A DNA stretch of 64,000 nucleotides from Cyanidioschyzon merolae (taxonomy: Eukaryota): assembly GCA_000091205.1 (NCBI GenBank), contig AP006500.2. One strand, written 5' to 3'. Positions 2,397 through 31,008 of the stretch are shown here, one piece after another. Under the pieces are notes generated by a model. The model did no database searches. It was not told where the DNA came from and was given only the letters and a program-made list of their open reading frames with translations. Positions within the stretch are counted from its first letter, which is position 1. Every line of letters starts with the position of its first letter. The position numbers and the translations under genes were made by a program.

Positions 2397-3051
2397 AGCA
2401 CACAGACGCACCGCCAAGGCGCTACGGCCTCATGCATATTCGCGGCTTCCATAGAGGCACGAATGTTCGTGCATCGGGGGCTTCACGTACCGTGAACGCC
2501 CCACAGGCGACAGATGCAAACAGAGGCACACAGTGCAGCGTTCCTGCAGACAGGATCGCTCGAGCCAGCTTAGGTGCTGTAAACGTCCGCCTCTACGAGG
2601 CGACGCACACGACATCCCATGTCGTTGTGGGCGTATGCTGACGCAGGGGTGCAGTTTAGCGCGTCCGGCATGGGCGGCTTTTCGAAATGATTCTTCAGCG
2701 CACGAACACCAACACATACGCGTGTAAACGTGATGGAGTCCGTCTGACTGGCTTTCACGGGCGTCGACCGCAGCGATATGGGCATACCTGCTAGCAGATT
2801 TTCCCCTGCATCGTTCGATGATGAATGTACCACATGTTCACAATTCTCGGTGTGGCCAGCGTACGCCCTAACTGGATCATGGAACTTTTCCTGTTCGACT
2901 GGTGCTCCGCAATTACCTGCATATTTCTCTATGGACATCAATCCGGCTGTGTTGTAGGCACCTTACATGGCGAAGCGCCTTTCTCGCCCCAGTCGCCGCC
3001 CAAGATGGGAAAAGCGATGTCGGTAGTCGCCGACAGCGATACGAACTTTCA

Positions 3052-3053
<2 letters not shown>

Positions 3054-3083
<30 letters not shown>
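3054..3083. repeat. (GCT)10 microsatellite
   Basis: Read directly. Confidence 0.95.
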
Positions 3084-3233
3084 ACACCCGCGCACTGGGA
3101 ACGCGAGTCACAGCGTACCCGACAACGCAGTCACTCTGTTCGTATCCGGGGCCATTCAAACTAACGCTTCGTAGGTTTTTGCGGAGTTGGCGAAACACTG
3201 CAAAGACTTTCTCCAACTGCAGTACCCGCGTGA

Positions 3234-4043: not shown

Positions 4044-6473
4044 TCTGTTCCAGTCTCTGGAGAGCGTGAACACGGCACCAGAAGCCACAGATACATCGCA
4101 ATCCCAAGCTGTGTCTGTCTGTGTACGCAGAACATGACCCTTGGGTTCCCGACTCCGCGGGCGCACACGATGCCAGCCAGCAACCTCAAGTGCGGCTCGC
4201 AGCGTGACCGAGATCAGCACGCTCAGGATGACGTATGGTAAACTCATCTGGCGTGAAGATTACTGCCTACTGGGCCCCGAATCATTTGGAACAGGCAACT
4301 GATCTTGTGTTTCTAGTCGTGAAGGCGAGACGCTTCGTCGAATGCTCACGAGCGCTGATGTGGCGGCTCATTGGACGTGTGACGCAGTCTACGCAGCGGC
4401 TTGTCTTTATGGTCCATGAAAACATGCCGTTGTGGTCATGCGAATGGATGCAAAGCAATGCATGACGGCCGCACGGGTTCCGACACAAGTCCCGCATCGA
4501 AGAAAACCGGTTCTCAAGCGATGATCGCGGGCGCGGCACTATGAACCATGTCTGCGAATAGCGCGTTAGGGGGCTCCCCATGTATGGAATGGTGTGAGCG
4601 TGGCCTTCATGCGCCATGCAGAGCATGACGTCGTGAGAGGCGCAGCGGAAACAAGGTAAGCACGCGCGTTTGAAGACCCAAGGTCTCCTGCATTTGTAGA
4701 AATGGCTTGTAAATAAGGCGCTTTCTCGAAAGGTGATGTGCGAATGATTGTCCTGTGGAGTGTGATGGACCGGTGCGCTTGCGCTCTTTCAGGGCGCAAC
4801 CTGCCACCGTGGTGCTCGGCGATATCGGATGCGGTGCCCGGATATCTGTCCTGCTGTTTAGGGCGTCGTCGGAGCCGAGAGCACGGTAACGAGAAGTCAC
4901 GCCCACATGGAGTCTCGATCCAGGGGTATGCGTTTGCGTATAGTGACATTCGTGGCAAACTGAAACGGAGCGGATCGCACCCAGCGATTTTGGGCGTAAA
5001 CGCTTCACCCTGGGTCTTTTGCTACGTATATCAATACAGCCCTTTGCGAGATTTTTCTCTAACTGCATGGTTTCCTTCTCTCCTATCTCCGGTTGGAAGC
5101 TCGGCAGTCTATCGTTTCCCCTTGAGCGCTGTTTTCAATAGTCGAAATATGAAGCGTTCGGGCGCAGGTTTCACCGCTTCTGGCCGTCGTCGACGCCTTT
5201 GATGCGAAGATGGAAGTTGGGATCTACGCGCTGCTTACAATGTTCGTCTTCTTTGTATCCAGCTTGGTTGCGCAATTTCCAGCGGTGAAGCTTGAATATG
5301 GTTAGGTGTCACCGAATACCCATTACACCTCCGCTTCCGTGCGATGTTCTTTGGTGCATGGACGCATGTTTCAGTGCTCGTTGCATGTCTCCGACGCATG
5401 CAGAAAGCTGCTTTCGATGTCGTCCTCCGTTTCCGTGCTCGATGCCATAACCTACAATTACGGGCTTCTTCTGGGCGATCCCCTCGGCAAGTACGCTGCA
5501 CACTGCATGCGCAAGTGGAAGCAGTTCTATTCGAATGAGGGTTTCTCGTATGTGATGTAACCCATGGTGATAAAATTACCGGACGAAACATTCGCGCTAA
5601 GGAATAACTCGAGAAATTTCGATCCTTCTACACTTCATTCGCGCAAAGCGGTGACGGACGCTCCAATGGAAGCGATGGCTGCAATGACACATATCCGACT
5701 CCAGCGCCCTTTCCCGAGCGAGCAGAACAGACAGAGGTTTCCGGGCGCATATCGCATGAGAGATATCAAGCCATTGCCGAATGCCGTCTTGTCGAAGGCC
5801 ATGAACAGACGGCGATTCGCCTTTCCTAAGGACTCGATTACTTTTGGTGAGCAGTTCTGCGAACCGGCGGTATGAGCGTGTGAACAAGTCGTCAACGCAG
5901 GTCTTCGAAGTTTTCCTCTTCAATCTGAGTATGCGAATTCCTTTGGCCGCGAGTTGCCTTGAAACAGCGAGATCAAAAACCTGAAGCATGCGCGACTTGA
6001 GCATGCTGCATTTGAAGGAAGGATGACGCGGAATTCTGAACATAAGCATTCGATACTGATATCGCTTCGTTCATGAAATCTAGACAGAGAGCGTCGCGCA
6101 TATGATCTTGATCCCAGTCATGTGACGGATTCCAAGAGCAACGCGTGGAAGAGACTATTCCGAAAAGGCGACCGAGAAATTTGAACCTACGTACGAACTG
6201 AACAGCCTTATCGCTACGCGTCGGTAGCCGGTGCTCTAAATCAAAACGCGGTCGGGAAACTAGTCGAAACGTAGGCACCGGGCGACCGGTTCACTGTTCC
6301 GTTTTTATCTGACACGGGAATAGGAGAGGAAAGCGGCAAAATCGAGTCTTTCCTAGATATACGCAGCTCAATCGTACGCAGTTGGCTCTGTTGGCAACGC
6401 ACTAGCGTCCAAAGCGATTGCAGTCGACTGCATCGCCTCGATAAGGCGAAATACGCACTACCAAATGTCATCT

Positions 6474-7040: not shown

Positions 7041-8436
7041 ACCGCATGGAGCTGCAGTCGAAGAACGCACGCGATCCCCTGCTTGGCCTTACGATGGTTG
7101 GTCGAAAGCACACGCGAGCGCTCTGCGTTGCACGTCGGCTCTCGACTCGCACCTGATATCGATACGGCGTACTTGCTCATTGCGGAACTGCGTCTGTAGA
7201 GCCGAGGTACGGACAGTGTCTCTTGTTCAGTGATGTATGATATGTACTATATGGTTTGATTCTGTACAATTAGATTATATATTGAGACAGCACCTGTGTC
7301 GGCGGCGCAGTATGTCCAAGAAGCTCAATGTTTCTTCGATCCACCTGGCACCAGTGCATGTTCTGATGCGGGCAGCTAGTCGGGGGCGGCAAATTATCAC
7401 GAGCGTTTGCCTCCAGATAGAGGCCAGCTCGCCTTCGAATCCGCTTTGGTGCAAACAACTAATTCGGGATATGGTGAAAGCGTAACCATCTGGAATATAC
7501 AAGTACTTGAATGGCAACGCTTGGATCTTGCACCTCCTGTGTAATTCCTGGAACGAAGCGAACGCACTATAGCTCTTGCGACTGGAATGAAGACGGCGTT
7601 TGCTTTTCCGCAAGCAGCATATTGGAAACGGAAACACTCCCGATTCCAAGTTTCCCTCAATGGCAAGAGATATGTTCACTATCTCTCCTCGGGAGCTGTA
7701 GGCACGCATGAATGAACCGAGCGCACTGTTGGAATGCGACAAGCGGGAACGGCACATGTTTTTTGTAAATTCCAAAACAGATCTTATCTCACGAGGACGA
7801 ATTTCAGGAAATATCCTCATACATCTGAATTTGTGCACGCAACCTGACGCGGATATACTGTTTGCGCACATAGATACCCTCCTTGTCTGGATCAATGCCG
7901 GCATACTTGAACGAAAGTACTGCGTGCACGCAAGGACATTCTCCGTGCCACATACGGTCAGTGACACAAAAACTGTCCGACGACCATGAAGAGTAAATAT
8001 GTCGACTTACGCACAGACGCCTCCCAGCCTTGTCTGGCCGGCCCCTGGCATCGGTTTCAGTTCCTCTCTGCACACTTCGAGCCCGAGGGCATGCTGTACA
8101 AAGTTTGCATCGCTCAGCCTTTAGAGTGCCCTTTGCAGCACAGCACATTTCCTGATACGGGTACCGGCGTTGAAGTCTCTGTTCAGACACCCCTTGCGTT
8201 TGTTACCACTCGTCAGAATCCCCAATGCAGGGATTCCTCGAACTTGTGCCCGCAGTTCCATGACAGCATCGTGGTCGTCTCATCGGACAAGCACGCTTTC
8301 TTCTTCCTTTTCGTCACTTGCGCTTCTTCACTCGATAGTCTGCGAGCAGCGTATTTGTCTCGTTTCTGCCCAACAAGGCAATGAGTGCCAGCCAGAATCC
8401 CCGACTCGCCTGTCCATACCTTTCCCTTAGATATTT

Positions 8437-9320
8437 TACTCCTTCCAACGAACGTACTTTGCGCATATATGGTATCCAACGCGAAAGAAGCATAGGATAA
8501 CACATATCCATAGCCGGTACACAATTGAAGTGATATGCTGGAAAACGCGAAAAAGCATAGGATAACACATATCCATAGCCGGTACACAATTGAAGTGATA
8601 TGCTGGAAAACGCGAAAAAGCATAGGATAATACATATCCATAGCCGGAACACAATTGAAGTGATACACTGGAAAACGCGAAAAAGCATAGGATAACACAG
8701 ACTCGTAGCCGGAACACAATTGAAGTGATACACTGGAAAACGCGAAAAAGCATAGGATAACGCATATCCATAGCCGGAACACAATTGAAGTGATATGCTG
8801 GAAAACGCGAAAAAGCAGATGATAACACACACTCATAGCCGGTACACAATTGAAGTGATATGCTGGAAAACGCGAAAAGCATAGGATAACACACACTCAT
8901 AGCCGGTACACAATTGAAGTGATATGCTGGAAAACGCGAAAAAGCATAGGATAACACACACTCATAGCCGGTACACAATTGAAGTGATATGCTGGAAAAC
9001 GCGAAAAAGCAGATGATAACACACACTCATAGCCGGTACACAATTGAAGTGATATGCTGGAAAACGCGAAAAAGCATAGGATAACACACACTCATAGCCG
9101 GTACACAATTGAAGTGATATGCTGGAAAACGCGAAAAAGCATAGGATAATACATATCCATAGCCGGAACACAATTGAAGTGATACACTGGAAAACGCGAA
9201 AAAGCATAGGATAACACACACTCATAGCCGGTACACAATTGAAGTGATACACTGGAAAACGCGAAAAAGCATAGGATAATACATATCCATAGCCGGAACA
9301 CAATTGAAGTGATACACTGG
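8437..9320. repeat. 65-bp minisatellite of about 13-14 tandem units. The consensus is 'cataggataacacatatccatagccggtacacaattgaagtgatatgctggaaaacgcgaaaaag', with unit variants such as acacacactcatagcc, atacatatccatagccggaacac and gcagatgataacacac.
   Basis: The periodicity was read directly, for example 8506/8571/8636. It produces the stack of overlapping minus-strand ORFs in the ORF track (8213..9456). Confidence 0.9.
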
Positions 9321-16972: not shown

Positions 16973-19900
16973 AGAGAGATGAATCAAGTCAAGTTAGTTG
17001 GATCGGATTGGCGCTGGAACTCCCACGCCCATACACACACACACACAGTGCCCAAGCTCGCATAGAACAGGTGACGCAGTTTGAGATCGGTTTCGCGAAC
17101 GAGCGGCAGGGCGTTGGTACCGCGGCGCCACGCGCTCGGGCAGGCCCTGATATTGGACGGCACGGAAATCATGCCTATTTTTGGTATAAATTGGATACAA
17201 ATGACATGCATGAACCCCACATTGCTGAACAGAATAGGACATACAGGATCGAAGCACTGCCAGATGCTTGGCAATCCCATGTCGCATTTTGGCGAGCGGG
17301 GCCACAACACTCGCGTCTGAGGATGTTAATTTCGGACGCTAGGTGTTCTTTTGCAGGCGACTGGTAACCGCACGAGCGTTCTATCCTGCGTGCTGTGTCA
17401 GCTCCAGCGTAAGCGTTCCTGCTCGTCTTGGGGTCTTTCCAAGGAAACGCTACCTCTGGAGAAAGCTCGGCTCGAGTTTTGCGTGCGCATGTCGGAACAC
17501 GGAGCAGAGCACGGGAGCCAGGGCGCCGCAGCCCCAGAAACACAACGCAGCATTTCTGGGCGTTTGCTGGGCCTTCGCTTTATGCAACGAGCGCTGGAAC
17601 GAACACAGCCTGAGCACCGGGATCATCTGCGCACTACGGGAACGCTACCTCATCAAACTTCGGGCAAAGCACGGCACTCAGTTGAAAAGAAAGCACAACA
17701 GCCAGCGAACGAGGAGCGAAGGCTCCTTGTTGTGTGTGATTACGAGTACAGTGTAGCTGCTGAGGACCTGAAGCTGAGTCAATATGCCACAGCTCGACAG
17801 CGTTACGGCTTCGAGACAACAGCGGTTTTTTTTGAAGAAGAAGCGACGACCGGTCTGGTGCTAGCTCGCACCGAGTCTTCGCCCAACAACGTCGATGAAA
17901 CCTTGCGGCAGGCACCGGGGTCGACACCTCGGCACCCCGATACGCGTCACGGAGACGAGCGCTTCCGCGAACTAGCCCATGATGGCCGCGCTCGACGGCG
18001 GCTAGATGGTTCGCGTGTGGCAAAGCGTTCCGCACCGTCTTCGCTCGCCGAAGCGTCGTTCTGCAGCGTCCGTGGACACCAGCGGAAACCGTGTCGTTTC
18101 TCAAAGTTGACCAGGTCGTCGCAACAAGGAGCAACTACGCGAAGACGCTAGCGAAATGGCTGACTCCCGACCTGAAATGGAGGATACACCAATGACCCGG
18201 GATTGATGGAGCACACTCGACGATGCCGCTTACCTGCGCCTAGATTTGAACACTTGTGCAGCCATCGACTGTGTCACTTGACTTCAGCAAGGTGATTCGG
18301 GATCAAATTCCAGTGATTCGGATTCATTGTTGCCACTTATCTGCGTCCCGCGTTCCGTACTCCTGCGGATACGGACAGCGTTCCGTACTCCTGCGGATAC
18401 GGACAGCGTTCCTCGGCGCTCCTCCAAAGTATACGTGGAGAATCGAGCTGCCAGCGATCCAGCTGCCTTACAACCAGCACCGTCCAGAGAGACACGAGGA
18501 CTGCAAGATGCCTTGGTGCGGTGCGTCATCGACTTGGCCGATGGAGACGTTTGCCGTGCCGCTTGTCTCGTAACGAGTATTATCGGATAATGGATCATCA
18601 TTGCCGTCTACCAACTGTGCTGCAAAATCATTTTATCCGCCTATCCGCGGCACGTCAGCCTCTCCGTATTGCTGAACCGCACCATAGCTGTGGCCTGCTC
18701 CGGGCGAGAATCCAGTTGCCTCTCTCGTAGACACTGATTTTTTCATTGAAAGTATTCAGCGTTACAGCACAGTGCCCAGACTGAGTAGTGCATAATAGCT
18801 TCAAAAAAGCGCATGACACAAAGCCGCTGGACACACTCTCGGAGCACGTGATGACCTATACGGATGCTCATCGAGGCGTTCAATACTCGGTGCAGAGGGT
18901 GCTTGCATGCATTTTTGCCGGCGGCGTTACACCATCGCAAGCCTCTCACGTTCGACTGCTGCGCCAGTTGACGTTGAGTTCGCATAACGTACTCCATCTG
19001 GTACATATGTCTGTGTCCAATGCTCTTCTTTTCATCCTGTTTGAGCGTGCAACCGCGCTTGTGATGCGTTTACGTCGTCGTGAAGGCATCCACGAGAATC
19101 ACGCTGAATCGAATCCTCCGCACGTTCAACGCCCACGTCGACGGAGCGTGCGTGCAACTTTTACGTGTTACAGCGTATCCAACTCCATCGGCTACCGCCA
19201 CTAAACGACACGAGTTGTCTGTTACTTAGTTTTCCAACTCATTGAACAAATTGTCAAATGCAAGCTTTTTGTGCGCGTTAGACCGGAACAGCTGGTGATC
19301 CTGGCACGGTCTCATGCACTCCTGCCAAGATCGCTGACTTGAGCCACATTGATGCCCGCGTACCGTCTGAATGAGGCGTGCGGAGCTTTCTGCTCCGCTC
19401 GATGCAGAACTCAGAGCGTCGAGACGGATCCCCGTGATGTTCGTCCACTTGTTGGCATGCCTTCTGGCGTCCATGATGCCGCGTACTCAACCATTCGGAG
19501 CCCTGGGAAAATTGAGCGGTTTGATGGGCTTTCCGTTCAGGCCTTTAACGCGGTGCTTTTGATTGGTAGAGGTACGGCGACGGCCTTGACGGGTTTCAAC
19601 CCCGGATCCAGGCCCGTGATGACGGCTTCTACTTCGTCTGGATTGAACGTTTCAATACGGGCGTCGCTGCTCGACACACCTTTCGGTATCATCATGTGCA
19701 TGCTGCGTGAGATTCCGTTGGTCTGCATTGTCCCTGCAAAATGCTTTCAATGTCCACTTTATATATGAGAGATCTTGAATGAGATGCCCCAACGCTCTCT
19801 GCGAAGCTCATCGCGTCATGCAAAGCTCCTCGCAGAGACCAGCCGTTGCTTATTGCATAGCGAATATTCCACAAAGGTGTCTACAGTTATATCACGGGTC

Positions 19901-21097
19901 ATGTGCTGAAATACTGGAACCACATCTTATTGGATATTGAGGATGCTAGGGCGCTCGGCTTCGACGTGCGCGTCTGCTTTGTTCTGAGCCGGCAGGCTCT
20001 GTTCTGAAAAACGTGTCGCAAATTGCGAACAAGTCAGCGATCACATTCCAGGCGTTTTTGCTAGACGAGCTTCACTGGCCGCAGACCGAAACCGCGGCTA
20101 TAAGCTTGGACGTTCCGGGGTGACACTCGTTCTCGTTGCGACTTCGCTTCGGAAGTCGCAGTCAACTCGAGCGCTTTGATCACCACGAGCTCGTCCCTGG
20201 CCTCCTTCGACACTGCGAAAGATCCAATTCACCAGTCGCAGCTTTTATTTGGTCTTGTGAGGTTATAACGGCCACAAATTGCGCGATGTGCGCCCCATGA
20301 AGCGCTCGACATTGACTCGCATCTGATTTCTGAGGTTCCTTTGATACGTTTTTGACAATCGTACAGCACAGCAGAGCTTTTCCGATCGCCGATATCGTGT
20401 GGCGCCCCCGGAAAGCATCCTGGGAATCGTGTATAGGAATTTGTGATGCAATGCTCAGAACTTGTTGCATCATGTCTCCGGAGCATCAGTTTTGTTGTTG
20501 CACGAATGTTGGATCACAATATTCTTGAGCAACTTGGACATCTGGTGGCCCTGCTCTCGGAACGCCAAAGAATAGCAGCATGACGATTGCGTCAAGCCGA
20601 GTGATGCTGGGCGAGAGACAATCGCGTAGGAGGCTTCGCGACACCACATGCCGTCCTGCATCTCACATTTCGGAAGATGCTCCCTACTGATATCTATTCG
20701 TTGAGAAGCAGTGATTATGGTTTCAGAATGATGTATCCTGGATGACACATTTCCATTCCAGACCCGTCTCATTCTCCTTTTGAGAGAATCTTTCTTCTTT
20801 TTGTCAAGTTTTATTTTCTCCGTCTTCACTTTCACCTTACCATGGTGTTCTGGTATGAAAGTAGTCACTATACTTTATATCCGTCTTGTGTCCTCGGGAC
20901 TCAGACGTACTGGGCGGACGTTGACACCGAAGCCTACCTTTTCTGTCCGTGTATAGATCTACTTTTGCTCAGGAAGTTTTACGTCACCTTTTGCGTCGCG
21001 AGCATGCCCAAAAACCGATGCACGGCTTGCCGGTCCGTCCTCCGTGCGACCAGAGGAGCTACACATCATTCCAGGGCTGATGAAGGTAGCGACCGAC

Positions 21098-21253
21098 TTG
21101 TCGAAGAACGGTGCCCCGGATGCGAACGACTCCACTACTGATCCGTCTATGGAAAAAACGCGTTTCCCGTGGAAAAGCGACCGACTTGTCGAAGAACGGT
21201 GCCCCGGATGCGAACGACTCCGCTGTTGATCCGTCTATGGAAAAAGGCGTTTC
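21098..21253. repeat. Tandem duplication of a ~78-bp unit ('gaccgacttgtcgaagaacggtgccccggatgcgaacgactcc...'). There are two copies.
   Basis: Read directly. The copies differ at a few positions. Confidence 0.85.
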
Positions 21254-22524
21254 ACATGGAAACGAAAGCCTTCAACTGGATTGAACCATAGCGACCAGGC
21301 TGGCACGAAGCACCACTGCTCGCCCGATCTCGGCTGCGTACTCCATGACCGCGTTGGAGTCACGGAGAACGAAGATGTGGAAGAGCTGGGTAGAAGAATG
21401 TGGGTACCAGAACCCACGATGATTACCTCAACGAAGCCTGGGCTGTTGAACGATCCTGTCCGATTCGCAGTTTTTCGGCACCTGCAAGAAACAATTGTCG
21501 CTAAGGCGGATGCTGCCAGAATGCGCACTCGTCTCGTCTTTACGAACAGCAGCTTATCTCTCTTTGAATCACCATGTACAGGTCTACCACTTCACACGAT
21601 TAAAGTCGCATCACGGAAGACGAACACCCGTTTCTCCTGTAACAAGCGTTCGCGCTTCCGTGTCCAATCGACAGTATGGTGGTCACCGAGCAACGGTCTC
21701 CCATACAAGCGCGCTTTTTATTTTTTTTATCCGTCTCTCTTCATCGCTGTCGGTATCAACGGTACGGAAGCTTCGCATCCTATTGCTTCTTCAGAAATAT
21801 TTGGTAGAGAACGTATGGAATGGATTTAATTGACGAGGAAACACTTGTGCAGAAATTGTTCGACGAATTCTGGTTTACAGACACGATATGCAGCTTACGG
21901 AGAACGATGACAATGGTTCATCCACCTGCTGACCGTAGAAGGAAGGTATTGTGGACATCAACAGGTTTCTAGCAAGTTACCACCAAAAGCACCGATTATC
22001 TCCGCGTCCTCTATCTGCATGCTACATCATACATTCCTTTTGTTGACTACCTGCAATACATCGAAGTGAAACCAAATTCACACACTGATGCACGAGTTCC
22101 AGAGTGCGCTGCTCTGAGCATGACGCCCACCATGCCGTGGCAAACATAATTCTAGGACAAGACACACCGCAGGCATCCTCGAAGCTCGCGAGGCTCAACC
22201 GGGTTCCCCGCTCGCAGGCAAAAACGAACCGCAGATGCGCCCCCTGCGCTCAGGAGGTGTGGCGCCCGCTCATCGTTCCTTGTTGCACGCTACCGTATCT
22301 GGCTCGTCAGCGCAAACTTGTCGGTAAAATATCCTGAACTTTCGCCAGAATGCTGCAGAGATGCTTCAGGCAATGAACAGGTCGGAGGATCCACCAGACA
22401 CGACGTCATCGTGACGACGGGCAGCGTGCCTGTGTGGGTTCTGCAGCGCAGGCGCACCAGCGACCAACATTGTTTTCAATTCTGCAAGTGTGTTTACAAG
22501 CGAGGAATCAAAGCATTTGGATGG

Positions 22525-24741
22525 TCAAAGAGAACGCGACCTACGACCTCGTCGCTGTCTCAGAGAAGCGCTGCTAAAAACCCGAATTCCCGCCACTGCA
22601 CTGGAGAACTCATCGAGTTCCAGGCTCGGTGGTAACATTGCCTGAAGGGTCGACGAGTGCGTCGATGCTCGCTCCATCCGCTCCAGACGCCCGTTCGGTA
22701 TGTGCAGCAACCTAGAACGTTGAGATGCAACGCCGGTGCCTTCCGACTCATGCGAGAAACGGCGCCACAGCCATTCATCGGTTTCTAGATATTTTTCACG
22801 CGCACTGTCGACGTTCTTGTCTGACACTGTGCGCAATCGCCTGCGTGTTTCATGTCCGTCGTGGCTTGTGCGGGTGACGTTATCTGGGGCGCCGAGCGGC
22901 GAGGTCTGCTCCAGCGGCCGTACGCCGTTGGGCGAGTGAGCCGGCGCATCCACGTGCAATGCCTCCAGGACGGTCCGCAAGTCGCTTTCCTGGAGCACAG
23001 TTAGCCATCCCGATACGAGGCTCTGTCCCCATGTATCTGTGGGCATGAGTGCACCCAGGAGCACGTTTAGCGCTGCACAGGGAACACGATTTTCGGTAGT
23101 CTCATCCGGGTCGCTCCAGAGCCCGGGGTGCGTCCCGAGCAACAGCTCGTCTGCGCCCTGCGAACCGTGCTCTTGCTCTACAGAACATGAATCCTGCTCA
23201 GTTGCCCGTAACTCAAGCGGTATCTCGGTACTACCATGATCTGTGTTTTGGAGTAGATCACTGAGGAAAATCAGCAAAGCTGCACAGAAATAGCGTGGGT
23301 GCATCGCGGCGTAGGGGCGCTCTCGAGCATCCCTCCGGGCGGCGTTGGTTCCGACGAGCTCACGAATATCGACACGATGCGCAGCGGTTACCTTGCCAGA
23401 GGCTAACCAGGTAGCGGGCGACCCGTGCATGTCGGGGAGCCTGCCTTCCAGTTCCATTTGAGCTGCTTCTGCTTCTGCTGCTGCTGCTGCTGCCGATGGA
23501 CTCATTGCCCGTTCTGTCGACAAATAAATACGGAGAATGACAGGCCGACAGGCTTCCAACAGAAATAGGCACGTCTCCAGCAGCGACGATTCATCTTCAG
23601 ACCAGACCGGCGCCAAGCAGCGGCAGCTGTGATGCAAAACATGAAAACGATGCTCATCTAGAACACGTCGTATCCATTCGCAGATTCTAAAAATGTATGC
23701 ATCTAACCCCACATATTTTCTAGGCCACTGAAATCTTTCCAGTAAAAACGCCTCAGCCGATTCCAGTTGCGAGCGCTCGATCGAGAAAACTTCTCCTAGC
23801 GCGTCGCCAAGTGCTTTGGTTTTCATGAGAGACCGAGCCGCAGCGAGACGCGTTGCTGCTGCTCCAACGAGATGAAGGACATCGAGCAGACGGCGCCTGC
23901 GCGCAAGCTGGGTACTTTCTGACTCGTCTTTCAGATCACGTTCGCCAGTGGCATCAGCGTTGATTAACGTACATAAACCCGTCGTATCAATCATAAAGAC
24001 CTTCTGGATCATAAAAAAAGCAAACTCGCCGACACCTGGTTCCATTCCGAGAGTAACGCACAAGTCCATAAGCCAAGAGACGAGCTCAGTGCGCCAGCCC
24101 CATTTGCTTTGCAGTCCAGTCTCTGAAGTGAAGTTTCCAACAGCAGCAGAGAGCGACCAGTTCTCGGGGCGAGCTCGATCCAGTTGGCGCAGGAGTTCCT
24201 CCGCAGTGCGATCCATGATGCGTAAGTGCTGCACAAACCGACGCAGGCTCGGTGCTGCTCGCCGCAGCGACTCCGCTCTCGGCAACGGCTCGAAGCACTC
24301 GTCCTCGGCGCGTGTGGTCCGCCTATGCTGTACAGCCTTCGGGATCGAGCCGTCATGTCCCAGGGTCTTCGCATCAGAAACCTCTCCAGCGCCTGCGTGA
24401 CTAGTTCCCAGGCAGCTGCTGCCGCAGAGACTCGCCGCGCCAACCGTAGCTGGAAGGGTTCCTCTCCAGACGTGAGGCCGTGGTTCTCCTTCCTGACCCT
24501 GTGTCGAGAGAGTCTCTATGGACGTTCGCGACAAACATCTCTCAAGAGCTGGCGTTTTAATTTCAGCCTGCTGACGAACACGTGCTGCAACAAAAGACTG
24601 CGGTGCGCAGCGCTCTGGATTCACGGACGCTACGCTTCCCAGAGTGAGTCCCCTTTTCGTTGAGTCCATGGTGGTACCCCTCACGCACCACGTGCGTTCC
24701 CCTGTCGCAGGTATCCTGTTATCTTGTCCCTGAGCACCCAT
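22525..24741 (-). CDS. Hypothetical long protein with a possible cyclin-box-like segment. Start is uncertain: ATGs end at 24741 and 24669, and the track start at 24783 is GTG.
   Basis: 'WGWRTELVSWLMDLCVTLGMEPGVGEFAFFMIQKVFMID' resembles the cyclin N-domain pattern (R..LVDWL.EV....L..ETL.LA...D+). The rest is low-complexity with poly-Ala. It is a 752-aa continuous ORF. Confidence 0.3.
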   Translation of the reverse strand: MGAQGQDNRIPATGERTWCVRGTTMDSTKRGLTLGSVASVNPERCAPQSFVAARVRQQAEIKTPALERCLSRTSIETLSTQGQEGEPRPHVWRGTLPATVGAASLCGSSCLGTSHAGAGEVSDAKTLGHDGSIPKAVQHRRTTRAEDECFEPLPRAESLRRAAPSLRRFVQHLRIMDRTAEELLRQLDRARPENWSLSAAVGNFTSETGLQSKWGWRTELVSWLMDLCVTLGMEPGVGEFAFFMIQKVFMIDTTGLCTLINADATGERDLKDESESTQLARRRRLLDVLHLVGAAATRLAAARSLMKTKALGDALGEVFSIERSQLESAEAFLLERFQWPRKYVGLDAYIFRICEWIRRVLDEHRFHVLHHSCRCLAPVWSEDESSLLETCLFLLEACRPVILRIYLSTERAMSPSAAAAAAEAEAAQMELEGRLPDMHGSPATWLASGKVTAAHRVDIRELVGTNAARRDARERPYAAMHPRYFCAALLIFLSDLLQNTDHGSTEIPLELRATEQDSCSVEQEHGSQGADELLLGTHPGLWSDPDETTENRVPCAALNVLLGALMPTDTWGQSLVSGWLTVLQESDLRTVLEALHVDAPAHSPNGVRPLEQTSPLGAPDNVTRTSHDGHETRRRLRTVSDKNVDSAREKYLETDEWLWRRFSHESEGTGVASQRSRLLHIPNGRLERMERASTHSSTLQAMLPPSLELDEFSSAVAGIRVFSSASLRQRRGRRSRSL

Positions 24742-25105
24742 CCATACGTCGGCGGATAACCCAACGACCAGCAATGGGCGCACGTCCCAGGGTATCCCCC
24801 GCGTCTATGGTCTCAGGCTAGTCTTGAAGCTTCCGCCCCGATGCGATGTCACGTAAAGCAGGGGCCTCGTCCCGTGCGCGAGATCCCGCGGATGCACCAG
24901 ACTGATCACAGGCGCGCCACATCGAAAAACGCTCAGCGATGCAGCGCAACGACGTTGGTTGGCGCGTCCGTTGGCACGCGTCGATGCGACGCACGTGCAG
25001 ATATTTCTGGCGGTGACGTTCGTACAGGGCGCCAGCGGCGCGCGCACACGCATGGGCGCGATGCTGTCCGTGCACGTGCAGCGTCGAATCCGTGCGGAAT
25101 GCCGT

Positions 25106-25106
<1 letters not shown>

Positions 25107-25136
<30 letters not shown>

Positions 25137-25137
25137 G
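25107..25137. repeat. (GGC)10 microsatellite
   Basis: Read directly. Confidence 0.95.
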
Positions 25138-25418
25138 CGCCGTACCCGTCCCCAGACGAGCCATTCACCTCGGTGTATGGTTCATACCATGGTGATCTGT
25201 TGATTTGCTCGCGGAACCCGCATGCACCCGTTACCGACACCAGACCAGATGATCCATACAAGCAACCGATGTCCGAAAGGGTACCACAATGCGGTCCTAT
25301 TCCCGCATAGATTCTAGGGGTTACGTCACCTACAACGTCGGGGCAAGTGCGTATAGCAGACTCCACATCCGCAGCGTCTCTGGATCGCGGGAGAATTTTC
25401 CCGTAGACAAACACTGCA

Positions 25419-27057
25419 TCAGGGACGGTGGAACACGAATACATACTCGGACGAGATGAGGTCTGCACTGAGGTGTGTGGTGGCGTCTGTGTACCCGGGA
25501 GCATCTGTTACAATCCATGAATCCGCATCGTGCGCAAAGCATGCAGGCGCACCGCAGCCCGCGCTTGACGCGAGATCATCGACGCGATTGAGCGCATTAC
25601 GACGATAGCGTGGATGTCTATCCATCGACGTGCTGATGGCTCCCAGTCTTTTTCGAGCGGCCGCTGGTATCGGTTTCAGCTTCTTCTTGTACACTTTGTT
25701 CCCTAGAGGCTGCTCTACAAAGTTCATTCTCGTCAGCTCCGGGCGCCTCCGCTCCCGCACCGCCTATCTCCTGGTACTTATGGGAGCGTTAAAGTCCCGG
25801 TTCGCAAACTCTATCGCCTTTGATCGTACCCGTAAATAGCTGTTCTTGCTCGTTTTGCGACGTTCGATATCGAAGGTATGCTTCCAGTGACTGTCCTGGT
25901 TTTCGCTGGTGAACTCTATCTTCCTTACATCGAACTCCGTATGGATCTCCCTGATCATCCCGTACAGGGCCCTGGAGTTGATAGCCACAAAGTGCGACTT
26001 GTGGTTGCATATCGTAACGAAATTCAAGCGCATCCCCAGATGCGCAGCCGCCCGTTTGTACGACCCTGCATGCTTCCGCACACCCAGCTCCATCTCCGCC
26101 TTGCGTTCGAGTTCTCGGTTCAGGAGTACGAAATACCGCAGGATGGGGGAATAACATCTTTTCACATCTTTTTTCATCTCTGGTATCTTTTCTGATGGAT
26201 TCGCCAGCGCCAGAACCGCACGGTGCTCTTGAATAGCCGTACGGATTATAGAGGCTTCATTCGCGCTCCTGGGTGACGTCTTCTTGTCGACGAATTCGAC
26301 GTCATCTTTATGCTGGTGAATGTTGGTGATTCCATTGGTAACCGCTCATATTTCCTTGCGAGAGAAGCCCGGGTAGAATGCAAAGATAGAGCGTATCATG
26401 GAACGTTCAAGGTTCATGGTAATCTAGTTCTTCAGATTCGCGAGGTACTTCATTGCCCCGTATTCGGAAATACCCCAGTCACTTCTGTACCGAGTACCCT
26501 TGTACCGGAATTCCGCGTTATTTTCTTGGAGGGTATGCACTCGCTCATTTTCGTCGACGTTTCCCCTGTGTCAAGCACCAGGTGCGGAATGAAGGTCATG
26601 TTGAAAAATTCTTCCGGAACCTCGACAGTTTTGATGTCCGCCACGTTGTCATAGGTGTCCTTCACAAAATGCATCAGTCCTGACGACGCCTTTATAATAC
26701 TCATGGACTGTGTCTCGACACAATTTCCGAAGTACTCTCGCAACTTTTGCTCGTACGGATCCTTGAAATATCCAAGAACAGAGGCTTTCACGACAATCTC
26801 GTCGTACTGTCGTCTTTCTTGCAGGCATTGACGTCGGCCTCCTGCCTCGGCTTCTTCGTCTTTTCCTGTTCGTCTTTGCTCGGGACTGCTTTTCGTTTCT
26901 TTCCGTCAGCCGGCGACACTGCGCCTCGGGGACCTTCCACTTCCTTGTCCATAGATTTCCTTTTCTTACTTTGGTTTGAAAATGAACCGGCTTTGTACGC
27001 TTCTGCTATAAAACAATTAAAAATCATTTGAATAGACTCACTTGAGGGTTGAAACAC
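25419..27057 (-). pseudogene. Fragmented minus-strand ORF series inside an AT-richer island. The four collinear ORFs are 27057-26788, 26791-26450, 26177-25764 and 25760-25419. It is a possible degraded gene or mobile-element ORF, or a gene with small introns or frameshifts.
   Basis: The four ORFs are consecutive and same-strand, with frame changes at the junctions. There are K/R-rich stretches (KKRKSMDKEVE..KKRKAVPSKDEQEKTKKPRQ). Local GC is visibly lower than the flanks. I recognised no homology. Confidence 0.2.
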
Positions 27058-27825
27058 GATTCAGCTGAAAGACTATAACTTGCAACGACTTTAACGCAAA
27101 TACAACTTGTAATTCAGGTGAACAAGTTAACGAATTGTCAGGATCGTGTTTCCCTTCAACGTCGACGTGCGTGTCATCTCTGATGCCTGCCAGATATGGA
27201 GATATGCGTATCGAGCGCATGATCTAGAACAAAGAACAGATACTGACCACTAACTAGCAACGATATAACGATTTCTCTCCCCGTCTACGATAAACGTTAG
27301 AAGAGGGAAAAGCTTTCCGCATTGCCGGAAGTTTATCTCCTGGGCGGAAGGTCCTGCGAGCCGGACGAGTCTGCCGGGCTTGCGCTCCGTGCGCCTCTGC
27401 AGCGACCGATGCTGTAGTGGGATCTGAGCAGATGGTTGGCAACGCAATTTAATCTGGGACAAGGAGCAGGCATGCTACGTCTGGGCGTCGCCCATATTGC
27501 AGTTGTCTCCTAACATATCGGTTCGCGCTGCCGCACACAGTTGGTCTGTCTGCGCAGCTTGCAGGCTCCCCGAGTGTTTATATTCTGCGACTCCGTGTCA
27601 GATGAATGACTCCTCGATCCGACGCCTTTAGTGGTATGACAAAGCTGTTCTGTCTCCGTCATGCATTTGCCCGAGCGGTATGTGCGCTACGGCGGCTGCA
27701 GGAAACCAGACGCTCCGCGCACGATAGAACGCACAAAATGACCATTACATTCGAGAACAGGTGATGAAACTCGGGAGTATGACGCAGCATGATGGACGCT
27801 TTCCCGAAAGCCAGTATCCATCCAT

Positions 27826-27888
27826 CCATCCATCCATCCATCCATCCATCCATCCATCCATCCATCCATCCATCCATCGACAAAGTAA
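27826..27888. repeat. (ATCC)n / (GGAT)n tetranucleotide microsatellite of about 15 units
   Basis: 'tccatccatccatcc...' was read directly. Confidence 0.95.
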
Positions 27889-27936
27889 ACGTTCTGCCAT
27901 CGGAAAAAATCCTCGCCGCAGCCGTCGGCGAGGCAG

Positions 27937-29604
27937 ATGCCCCGTGGCGAGCGGTCAGTCCACCCGTCCTGCTGTCAACGGGGTCCATCACGGACACTGA
28001 CACAAAGTGGACGCGGAACTGCCAGCGGACACGTCATAGCTCGCCAGGGCTGCACCGTTCCTGCTGCCAGATGCGGACACGAGGTCTTCGTGTCCACACA
28101 CTGCACCAGGGTTGTTTCCAAGCGCTGGCTTGTTTACAACAAACGCGGAATGTGGGAGTGCATAGCACCAACAGCCTACGCGGTGGACTGGAACACCGCG
28201 CTTGGTGACGTTCTGCAGACTCCTGAAGAAGTAGAGTTTCTGAGCACACTGGCGTGCTCGCGGGAGCGCTTGCAAGTCGCGCTGCGGCACTGGAAACAGC
28301 TCTCTCTACGGGAGCGTAGTCTATGTGGAACCCGCCAGAAGCACGCGAATAGCGAGGCTCACTTGCCAGCCGCGGAAGAGAAACCTGTCGACGAATCTGC
28401 TAATAAAGCACTCCTTAAAAACTTGAAAGAGACCCTGTTTGCGACCGCTGGGCCGGTCGAGGTGCGGAGCGCCCTCTATCAACTTGAGGCCTATATTCCG
28501 TGCTTGCAGCGCCTGACGAGCTTGTTTCAAGAACAACGTACTGTGGAACATTTTGCGCATAATCGGCACGCGAGCGAAAGCTGCCGTTTCGCGTGGAAGT
28601 CGGGAATGGCGGAACGCCGCACCGTCCAACGGGAATCATTATTGCGTTTCGAGATCCTGTTCACCCTTTTTTATTGGAGCATGGCAAAGATCAGAACCGG
28701 GCATGAAATACTTGATGAGTTTTCATCGAATGCCGAAGGTCAAACTCGCGAGGCCGTCGAGAACGAGGCAGTCCGACTCTTCCGCGAGGCCAGCGGTGTT
28801 CTCAAGTATCTCTCGGAGAAGCTTTCTCCGGGATTGCTGGTGGACATGGATAGCTCCGAATTCGTTTGTGAAGTGCATCCATGTGTAGCATCCGCACTGT
28901 CAAGAATAGCCATGGGCGAAGCTTATTTGCTGGCACTAACGCGTGCCGAGTCCCGACAGCTATCACCGGAAACACTGCTGCGTCTCTCCGTGGGTGTTAC
29001 GGAGACTTTCGCGCTCGCACGCGCTCAACTCCAAGGGCTCTGTGATGGCACTAACAAGGCTGCCGCTGGTCACAAACGACTCGCGTACTCCCCAGAGCCT
29101 GGTTACCGCGCAGTTGCGGAGCTTGGCGAGGCACTCGGACGCACACGTTGCTTCTATTATCAAGCGCTCATCTTTGAAGCGGGTACGAGTCCGCGAGAAA
29201 TTTCAGGCAAGCGCGGGGCAGTTATACGCTTGCTCGAGCACGCATCGCTCGAAATTGAGAAGCGCCGTGTGGGGCGCCTCCTGCGAGACGGCGCGTTTCG
29301 CTTCCTCGTCCCGCCGATGCGTGCGCCCACCGTCCAGCATTGGCAGAACTTAATTAGCATCAAGCTAGAAAAGAGCCGCCGCGACAATGACCTGGTATAC
29401 ATGGAACCTGTTCCGGACTCGATACCAAACATCACAGCAACTGAGGCCCTGTATCCGTTCTATGCTGTTGAGTATTCCTTCACGGACTTGAACCAAACCC
29501 AGCTCGATGCCAGTTCATCTCTAGACGCGTCACTGAATGGTAGCCCCCGCGCCGGTGCCCAGCAGAACGGAACGAACGAGTCGATTGGAGGGACTTTCCG
29601 CTGA
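27937..29604 (+). CDS. BRO1-domain-like protein (BROX/ALIX N-terminal-like). Tentative.
   Basis: The ATG at 27937 was verified. '[16 protein letters not shown]' and '[12 protein letters not shown]' resemble the BRO1 consensus 'FEKACVLFNIGALHSQIA' and 'AAGVFQYLKE'. The protein is alpha-helical and about 550 aa. Confidence 0.4.
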
Positions 29605-31008
29605 AACCAAACGCCAAATAAACACTGTGTTCTGATTCACAACGACAAATGGACGACAAGAACCGCCTCAGCGAAATCCACGCAACCGAGTCAGCATTCA
29701 CGGCACGCTAGAAAAAGTTCGTATCCCGACCTGCATCCCTTGGGTCTGAACGACAACCAATAAAACACGCCATGTATCGCAAGCATGAAACTAGAGCAAT
29801 GCTCCAGCGGGCGCTGCGTATCGCCGCGCACAACGCCTGCGCGTATCCTCGAGCCGACGCACTTTGTGTGGTACGGCAACGCCGTTCTGTCTCCGTGCAG
29901 CGACCTCAGCGGCGCTATAGGCGCTATTGCTGTCGCTTTCGGCAGGCAGTAGGCACACACGATAGGACGTACGAAACCACCAGAATATCCGAGATGAAGT
30001 ATAGGTAATGTAACATGGAGGTAGGTGTAGATCGTTGGATCCTCCACCTCGCACTGGAAAAAACATAAACTAAGAAAAGCAAAATGCGCATAATCGGAGA
30101 ACGCTGGCCTAAGTGAACGTTCTGTCAATGGAAAAAAAGGGAAAAAATGCCTGCGCGTGTTAAACCCGCAGGCACGCATCGCTCACATGATTCATGTTTA
30201 GAATCGATGAGCAGAATGAGGGATTCCACACGCGTGCGATTCTTAGCAACAGGTAGAAAAGCGTCTACTTTCCCGTTTTAGACCGCCTCAAGTTCCACAA
30301 ATTCCAGACGAGACTTGATTACGGGAATTATGGTCCGTTCAAGCGTTCCTCCGGGCATCGAGCATATTGTTAGAAGCGGCTCCGGCGCGAAACGCCCTGA
30401 TGCAGTCGACATACAGAGAGAGACCGGCTCTGGGGTATCTTTGCCGGCGTCAGTGTCAGGCGTTATTCACTGGATTCGGAGCCGAAGACCATTGTTCTTC
30501 TGGGAACCAAAAGGCCGTGTAGACAGACCTGCTTCCAGCAGCGCAAAACGACACGCTATGACAACATAGCGACCAGAGCGACGCCTAGACACAGACCGTC
30601 CATCTCCATCCCGGAAAACCGCGTTGCAGAAGACCTGTCTGGGTCTCGTCACAGCATCCGCCACCGGGGGCACGCGGAGCCATAGCGCTGCAGGCTCGTC
30701 CGGTTCGCGAAACTTTCCATCTACAGGATGAACTTTCGAATATCTGGAAACCGTCCAACCGTACATCGTCTGCGACACGGATGGAAGATAGTATTCGTCA
30801 GTTGCTGGTTACTTCCTCGTTTTTGTTCTATGGGCGCCCGTGCCGCCCATGCAATCCGCGAAACCTATACCTGCGTCAGATTGTAATGGAGCGTTGCACT
30901 GCTCGCTCTGCACCTGGGTTTCGATTTTTTCGGAACTAGATTAGTTGCGTACCCTCGAAATTCGAAGTGCAGTCATGAGAGCATGTGGAGGCTTTTTGGT
31001 TCTTCAAG

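Follow-up and report, generated by a model that had tools for sequence, protein, structure and literature searches.

We have analysed a 64,000-nucleotide stretch of Cyanidioschyzon merolae DNA (contig AP006500.2, assembly GCA_000091205.1), referred to here as the window, and within it an AT-richer island at 25400-27250. There an earlier interpretation made from the letters alone, the sequence-only reading, had noted four open reading frames (ORFs) in a row on the minus strand. The window is part of nuclear chromosome 18 of strain 10D, and six of its ORFs are identical to C. merolae 10D proteins (BAM82456, which is CMR222C, and BAM82467-BAM82471). We are very confident that the island is a dead, non-autonomous copy of the transposable element CMe-1A, which inserted in the minus orientation and then decayed. 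The CMe-1A family was published in 2013 (Bao & Jurka, Mobile DNA 4:12, PMC3627910), and the feature, one of its degenerate members, is not a new gene.

The island matches the CMe-1A consensus

The CMe-1A consensus (3,169 bp) and the CMe-1 protein (734 aa) were taken from Additional files 2 and 3 of PMC3627910. Bao & Jurka list a single Fanzor family for C. merolae and describe CMe-1A as a family of ∼ 150 members that each show ∼ 80% identity to a consensus of ∼ 3 kb with one Fanzor1 ORF. Some individual elements still encode an intact Fanzor1. Terminal inverted repeats (TIRs) are absent, target-site duplications (TSDs) were undeterminable, and over its first 635 bp the element shares 95% identity with another repeat, TE-N2_CMe (635 bp, ∼ 70 copies) (PMC3627910). 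The consensus itself consists of a non-coding 5′ region of ∼ 900 bp followed by a single, intronless 734-aa Fanzor1 ORF.

Consensus positions 1-2052 are colinear with the minus strand of the window from 27902 to 25809. In blastn, consensus 43-2053 aligned with window 27823-25808 (81.2% identity over 2,025 columns, E = 0) and consensus 2901-3089 with window 25814-25627 (70% identity). The CMe-1 protein gave a tblastn match with E = 1e-124, with 58% identity over aa 2-135 and 64% over aa 136-371. At the nucleotide level the ORF part is 81.5% identical to the consensus (937/1,149) and the 5′ part (consensus 1-905) 76.8% identical when gap columns are counted. The relic shares with CMe-1A the genome, the 5′ module, the ORF (58-64% amino acid identity over aa 1-371) and the start at consensus position 1, and its 81% identity agrees with the ∼ 80% copy-to-consensus identity reported for the family. 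It differs by the loss of consensus 2053-2906 and of the last ∼ 70 nt, by five frameshifts and three stops, and by a (GGAT)16 expansion. It is not a complete element, as both the 3,169-bp length and the intact 734-codon ORF have been lost; degeneration is reported for the majority of copies in this old family. The 5′ module of TE-N2_CMe is present in the relic at 27232-27902, as judged via the CMe-1A 5′ region only. A trypanosomatid or apicomplexan origin and a DIRE-type relic were also considered, and were dropped given that the host genome is that of C. merolae.

The sequence-only reading had offered a decayed mobile-element ORF as its leading explanation, and a degenerate, internally deleted CMe-1A copy with a Fanzor1 gene at 81% consensus identity bears this out. 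Its suggestion of a recently pseudogenised gene conflicts with the ∼ 19% divergence from the family consensus, and that of a horizontally acquired segment holds only in the trivial sense of a transposon insertion. A homology search with the concatenated frames returned nine metagenome proteins (40-54% identity, at most 73% query coverage); tblastn places these relatives on 27037-25809, the frame changing near 26850 and again at 26550. Two database searches gave 9 and 254 protein relatives, and 217 metagenome stretches are related too. Paralogues were found as well: further CMe-1A fragments lie elsewhere in the window, and the metagenomes contain hundreds of related sequences. Because both paralogues and homologues exist, we give no credence to random intergenic sequence with chance ORFs, a possibility for which the lack of a significant Pfam match to the four ORFs (best E = 0.02 and 0.024) might have been taken to speak; neither an identity of 81% with a repeat consensus already in the literature nor the 9 + 254 protein relatives and 217 metagenome stretches would be expected of it.

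The drop in GC content that first drew attention to the island is real: 0.495 over 25400-27250 compared with a window mean of 0.558 (standard deviation 0.027 for segments of this length); a value this low is reached by just 2.8% of such segments.

Anatomy and lesions of the relic

According to the consensus alignment, the whole recognizable copy occupies 25619-27902 on the minus strand, so that the element is longer than the island at one side and shorter at the other. Its 5′ terminus is intact, with consensus position 1 at 27902, whereas its 3′ terminus is unrecognizable and it has suffered an internal deletion. The part that extends beyond 27250 belongs to the 5′ non-coding module (27232-27902, consensus 1-635), which has normal GC. 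Within this module lies a perfect (GGAT)15.8 microsatellite (27816-27878; Tandem Repeats Finder and alignment) at a place where the consensus has only GGATGGAT. At the other end, the final ∼ 70 nt of CMe-1A were not found downstream of 25619 (local alignment score 18 versus a shuffle mean of 18.8). Terminal repeats flanking the island, which the sequence-only reading had envisaged, did not materialize: a search of 24800-28300 for terminal inverted and flanking direct repeats gave only chance-level pairs of 14-16 nt, in a copy that has lost the 3′ terminus by which a TSD would be recognized.

The original ATG of the Fanzor1 ORF is kept at 26950-26952 (consensus 906-908; MDKEVEGPRGAVSPADGKKRK in the relic, MEKEVEDPGGPVSPAAGKKRK in CMe-1). 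From here the N-terminal remnant of the ORF, corresponding to CMe-1 aa 1-382, runs to 25809 in three frames (tblastn). It contains the lysine- and arginine-rich stretch GKKRKAVPSKDEQEKTKKPRQE (26904-26839, CMe-1 aa 17-38), which had been described as resembling a nuclear localization signal (NLS) and was found as described. In total the relic ORF has accumulated five 1-nt deletions, three substitution stops and one 854-bp deletion. Three of the 1-nt deletions lie in the N-terminal remnant: after consensus 1020 (26837-26838), after consensus 1308 (26550-26551, with the tblastn frame switch at about 26549-26550) and after consensus 2015 (25844-25845), the last at a site where homologues go on as KQKVFTG.IETDGV in the other frame. 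The stops replace consensus codons 177 (CAT, His, to TAG; 26424-26426), 203 (TGG, Trp, to TGA; 26346-26348) and 682 (TGT, Cys, to TAG; 25764-25766).

The 854-bp deletion removed consensus 2053-2906, equivalent to aa 383-667. Its junction (25808-25814), placed by the alignments on either side, sits at an ATGGAG/ATGGAG microhomology that reads ATAGAG in the window. Past it follows the C-terminal tail of the ORF (25619-25808, consensus 2907-3098, CMe-1 aa ∼ 668-730) with 67-70% identity and two more 1-nt deletions, one after 25668 and the other after 25627. Three codons past the junction, in the frame of the third ORF, the sequence NRDFNAPI (25802-25779) corresponds to NRDFNAAI of CMe-1, and the window copy thereby retains the Asp of RuvC-III (D672 in CMe-1). 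This is the sole surviving remnant of a catalytic motif. The earlier statement that the ORFs have no recognizable catalytic motifs is thus right in so far as the catalytic core has been deleted, but it overlooked this remnant.

The four ORFs themselves have exactly the lengths that had been reported for them: 89 aa (ORF1, 27057-26788), 113 aa (ORF2, 26791-26450), 137 aa (ORF3, 26177-25764) and 113 aa (ORF4, 25760-25419), all on the minus strand. They had been said to abut each other with frame changes, which is true of ORF1 and ORF2 only; these overlap, and their frame change is the deletion after consensus 1020. ORF2 and ORF3 are 272 nt apart, while ORF3 and ORF4 share one frame and are parted by the TAG at 25766-25764 (three-frame translation). 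The next frame change lies inside ORF2, at the 1-nt deletion after 26551, and the frame that continues from it is masked by the TAG at 26426-26424 and the TGA at 26348-26346. The deletion after consensus 2015 lies inside ORF3; since this nucleotide and the 854 nt add up to 855, a multiple of three, ORF3 crosses the deletion junction in frame. In ORF4, homology is confined to about the first 41 codons (phmmer match to CMe-1 aa 683-723). The remainder (25419-25618) is flanking or otherwise unrecognizable sequence that is open by chance, similarity to the consensus and to the protein ending at 25619.

Lesions are neither introns nor sequencing errors

Four ORFs in a row on one strand, with a 36-nt GTGAGT...TTTATAG motif in the 5′ leader (27041-27006), could suggest a working gene in which short introns, as the sequence-only reading had allowed, programmed frameshifting or stop read-through overcome the frame changes. 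However, the relic aligns with the intronless consensus ORF without a break at each frame change, apart from gaps of 1 nt, and this excludes splicing. Beyond the frame changes there are three nonsense substitutions, and of the three catalytic residues the 854-bp deletion leaves only one. The differences from the consensus are distributed over codon positions 1, 2 and 3 as 79, 51 and 77 (of ∼ 382 each); this lack of third-position excess, as expected of mostly neutral decay, also speaks against a working gene. The reference annotation has no protein here, and the intron-like motif, located before the ATG, joins no ORF pieces. We consider a functional gene extremely unlikely. The motif itself, GT[A/G]AGT...TTTATAG followed by CAG, is kept in both the consensus (∼ 829-864) and the relic (27006-27041, minus strand) and is probably too short for a real intron.

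An intact Fanzor1 gene that merely seems broken through sequencing or assembly errors is no less improbable. It is true that three frame changes each correspond to a missing base in a short run of purines, a kind of site where errors arise. However, eight JGI contigs from different samples, 99.35-99.7% identical to window 27878-20770, give identical gene calls of 79, 113, 137 and 113 aa, and the exact 137-aa sequence of ORF3 is present on 14 JGI/IMG contigs. As the same ORF pattern recurs in eight independently assembled contigs, the lesions are not sequencing errors; substitution stops and an 854-bp deletion are in any case incompatible with homopolymer errors. All eight metagenome contigs of the locus terminate within the GGAT microsatellite.

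One JGI/IMG source labels ORF3 (25764-26177) as 'peptide methionine sulfoxide reductase MsrB'. This label is wrong. It reflects a sub-threshold match to the Pfam model SelR (E = 0.024, 15 bits versus a cut-off of 24.9); ORF3 is a piece of a Fanzor1 gene, 64% identical to CMe-1 aa 204-372. The Pfam match of the four ORFs to V_cholerae_RfbT (E = 0.02) is likewise below threshold.

Assignment of the CMe-1 family to Fanzor1

We compared a profile of 24 CMe-1 family members, from which the window copy was left out, with the green-algal Fanzor1 proteins CRe-1, CRe-2, CRe-4, CVu-1 and VCa-1 (PMC3627910) in hhalign. The two align with a probability of 98.7% (E = 3.6e-16) over 289 columns, and the GxDPG, VVxxG, DE[FY]xTS and RDxxAAxN motifs are in register across the alignment. 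In the CMe-1 family the Asp of RuvC-I is D431 (GADPGNT), and RuvC-II consists of VVAYGAG, with G570, and a downstream Glu, E603, in VDEFRTS; all of these lie within the segment deleted from the window copy. Such a 'rearranged' RuvC-II, with Gly or Pro at the canonical Glu site and an alternative Glu downstream, has been described for Fanzors, as have N-terminal NLSs (PMC10530073). The basic stretch at CMe-1 aa 17-38 would fit such a signal.

For comparison with known systems we used SpuFz1 and GtFz1 (Saito et al., 2023, PMC10432273) and the green-algal set (Jiang et al., 2023, PMC10530073). Characterized and green-algal Fanzor1 proteins share with CMe-1 the GxDPG motif, the Gly-for-Glu rearranged RuvC-II, the RDxxAAxN motif and a basic N-terminus. 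Green-algal Fanzor1 proteins also have a CxxC...CxxC zinc ribbon, which is not apparent in the CMe-1 family: between RuvC-II and RuvC-III, CMe-1 aa 604-669 hold only H610, H611, C615 and C625, in a region that is deleted from the relic. From the characterized Fanzor1 proteins the window copy differs in that its catalytic core is wholly gone. Prokaryotic TnpB (IS200/IS605, IS607; OMEGA) is a mobile-element nuclease whose guide RNA comes from the 3′ end of the element (PMC10432273). It is ancestral to Fanzors and has the same RuvC architecture, whereas CMe-1A resides in a eukaryotic nucleus, lacks a TnpA partner and encodes a long N-terminal extension. TnpB and Cas12f models gave no sequence match above threshold with the CMe-1 consensus. 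We know of no transposase, TIR or TSD associated with CMe-1A.

Two metagenome paralogues, L001 and L002, retain the segment that was deleted from the window copy. Their longer frames reach VVGADPGNTN, IPVDEF.TS and VNR.FNAAI, that is, the RuvC-I, RuvC-II and RuvC-III signature of TnpB and Fanzor. They have different neighbours, ATP synthase beta for the former and a Brix-domain gene plus an FAD-binding monooxygenase for the latter. Precomputed flags for 'PF26935/DUF8286' stood on family members mostly, but not solely, with acidic KEAxPATQEV repeats, and were not reproducible.

Genomic setting and possible co-option

The relic lies in the divergent intergenic region between CMR227C (BAM82460; 22525-24741, minus strand, ATG at 24741) and CMR229C, a BRO1-domain protein (BAM82461; 28150-29604, plus strand, ATG at 28150), and fills 2.3 kb of its 3.4 kb. 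Its 5′ end is 248 bp from the CMR229C start codon. A 555-aa ORF at 27937-29604 is longer than the annotated CMR229C, which starts at 28150. BAM82460 and BAM82461 are consecutive numbers, so no protein is annotated between the two genes. The locus tags skip CMR228 at this point (window 24742-28149) while the protein accessions run on without a gap; the skipped tag may be a non-protein entry for the relic in the genome project's own database.

This position raises the question of whether the relic, dead as a transposon, has been co-opted as part of a promoter shared by CMR227C and CMR229C or as the source of a non-coding RNA. We regard this as very unlikely, and the same applies to the form of the idea in which it would serve as regulatory DNA or would supply a guide-like RNA in trans to those few CMe-1 Fanzor1 proteins that are still intact at other loci, for which our data offer no support. 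The features behind the idea are the divergent promoter position, with most of the intergenic region occupied and the 5′ end close to a start codon, the independently mobile 5′ module and the partial 3′ tail that was retained; the insertion is also present in all sampled near-identical strains. Presence in strains that are 99.5% identical is, however, uninformative on selection, and the RNA analyses also count against co-option. No Rfam match was found in 24500-31000 at E ≤ 1. The tail of the window copy folds no better than shuffled sequences (z = −1.25), whereas the 3′ 271 nt of the CMe-1A consensus fold with z = −2.56. Across the family, for which 57 distinct tails from 80 metagenome loci were examined, RNAalifold gave no consensus structure, and covariation was not seen, with compensatory changes in 39 cells, below the 53-78 of slid controls.

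Further CMe-1A copies and other repeats

The window contains more pieces of CMe-1A. Downstream of CMR229C lie two fragments of the 5′ module, one on the minus strand at 29846-30030 (consensus 79-257, 79% identity) and one on the plus strand at 30413-30752 (consensus 209-556, 68% identity). To judge from their likeness to the CMe-1A 5′ region, these head-to-head fragments are presumably copies of TE-N2_CMe. A solo 3′ tail (consensus 2832-3092) is located at 8005-8261 on the minus strand, with 43% identity to CMe-1 aa 643-723, in the stretch of the window with the lowest GC content (7451-9300, 0.458); by the accession numbering no protein is annotated in the stretch around it. The ORFs beside this tail (7275-7967 and 8213-8896) have no Pfam match, and their first-ATG forms are absent from the protein collection. 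Similar isolated pieces are seen in the metagenomes. Downstream of ATP synthase beta, L001 carries an inverted 5′ module (5800-6381) beside a short tail-like segment (5704-5774), and in L002 a solo tail (1344-1539) lies within a called gene of 342 aa. These solo pieces indicate that heads and tails of CMe-1A often survive separately.

The ends of the family members allow two further observations. First, a T-rich tract adjoins the 5′ end of nearly all copies (17 distinct metagenome copies, from L001 to L082), for example ...GATTTTGTTTC followed by CGATGAC. In the window a T-rich tract at 27903-27912 abuts the element in the same way, GGATTTTTTC being followed by CGATGG. The T content at the 5′ junctions is 63% at positions −10 to −1 compared with 18% at −40 to −21. 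The tract could represent a target-site preference resembling a target-adjacent motif, a decayed homopolymer or the true outer end of the element; the 2013 description (PMC3627910) does not mention it. Second, in L002, L009, L033, L040 and other copies similarity persists for ∼ 12-25 nt past consensus position 3169 despite different flanks, for example TTTGTTTCCAGGGGT and TTTSYTGTTGCTGGTG, and the published 3′ terminus of CMe-1A may be slightly short.

A much older, Fanzor1-like relic with stops and frame changes is found at 18860-20403 on the minus strand, where nothing is annotated between CMR226C and CMR227C. Three tblastn pieces are colinear with CMe-1 aa 153-680, with 31% identity over aa 454-680. 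Its RuvC-I motif GLDPG is kept, RuvC-II reads VDAF and RuvC-III reads HRVLNASMSIR. Intergenic tandem repeats were noted at 21088-21262 (88-bp unit, 2.0 copies, 92% matches) and at 18350-18412 (28-bp unit, 2.2 copies, 100% matches).

Discussion

We propose that a CMe-1A copy inserted in the minus orientation between the divergent genes CMR227C and CMR229C and decayed afterwards. The decay comprises ∼ 19% divergence, five deletions of one base each and three nonsense substitutions. The deletion of 854 bp at the microhomology took aa 383-667 and with them D431, G570, E603 and everything else up to RuvC-III, and the 3′ terminus has also gone or become unrecognizable. The four ORFs are thus chance-open pieces of a wrecked Fanzor1 frame.

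Characterized Fanzor1 proteins bind a guide RNA whose template is the 3′ end of their element and cut matching DNA beside a short target-adjacent motif (PMC10432273, PMC10530073). By analogy, intact CMe-1 would be an RNA-guided RuvC DNA endonuclease. Only one of three catalytic residues remains in the relic, and both the reading frame and the 3′ terminus are lost; it can make no nuclease, and a complete guide RNA is probably beyond its reach as well. It appears to have no function today.

Several points weigh against this interpretation. The lack of function is deduced from sequence only. Second codon positions differ less from the consensus than first and third positions (51 versus 79 and 77), so that some of the divergence probably predates the insertion and arose under selection. 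With the CMe-1 consensus, Pfam returned only PF07282 on the RuvC-III motif, at E = 0.52, and a PDB sequence search had no significant match; Pfam and PDB searches with the family profile and with long family members were not significant either. An AlphaFold2 model of the family member P0061, built from a 43-sequence alignment, was unusable (mean predicted local distance difference test score 39.3, predicted template modelling score 0.27). With these searches null and the model unusable, the assignment to Fanzor is supported by the profile-profile comparison, by the motifs and by the classification of 2013 rather than by a structure.

The finding carries little biological weight, as the family, its copy number, the consensus and the Fanzor1 ORF were all published in 2013. 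It accounts for an unannotated stretch of 2.3 kb between CMR227C and CMR229C, and it shows that the automatic JGI label 'MsrB' on a 137-aa metagenome ORF is spurious. The T-rich tract, the apparent absence of a Cys4 ribbon, the lack of a detectable conserved 3′ RNA fold and the possibly short 3′ end of the consensus may be of use to those who study target motifs and guide RNAs of Fanzors. They are observations on the family and not properties of the relic in the window. For C. merolae, whose genome is compact and nearly intron-free, strings of frame-broken ORFs should first be compared with CMe-1A and TE-N2_CMe.

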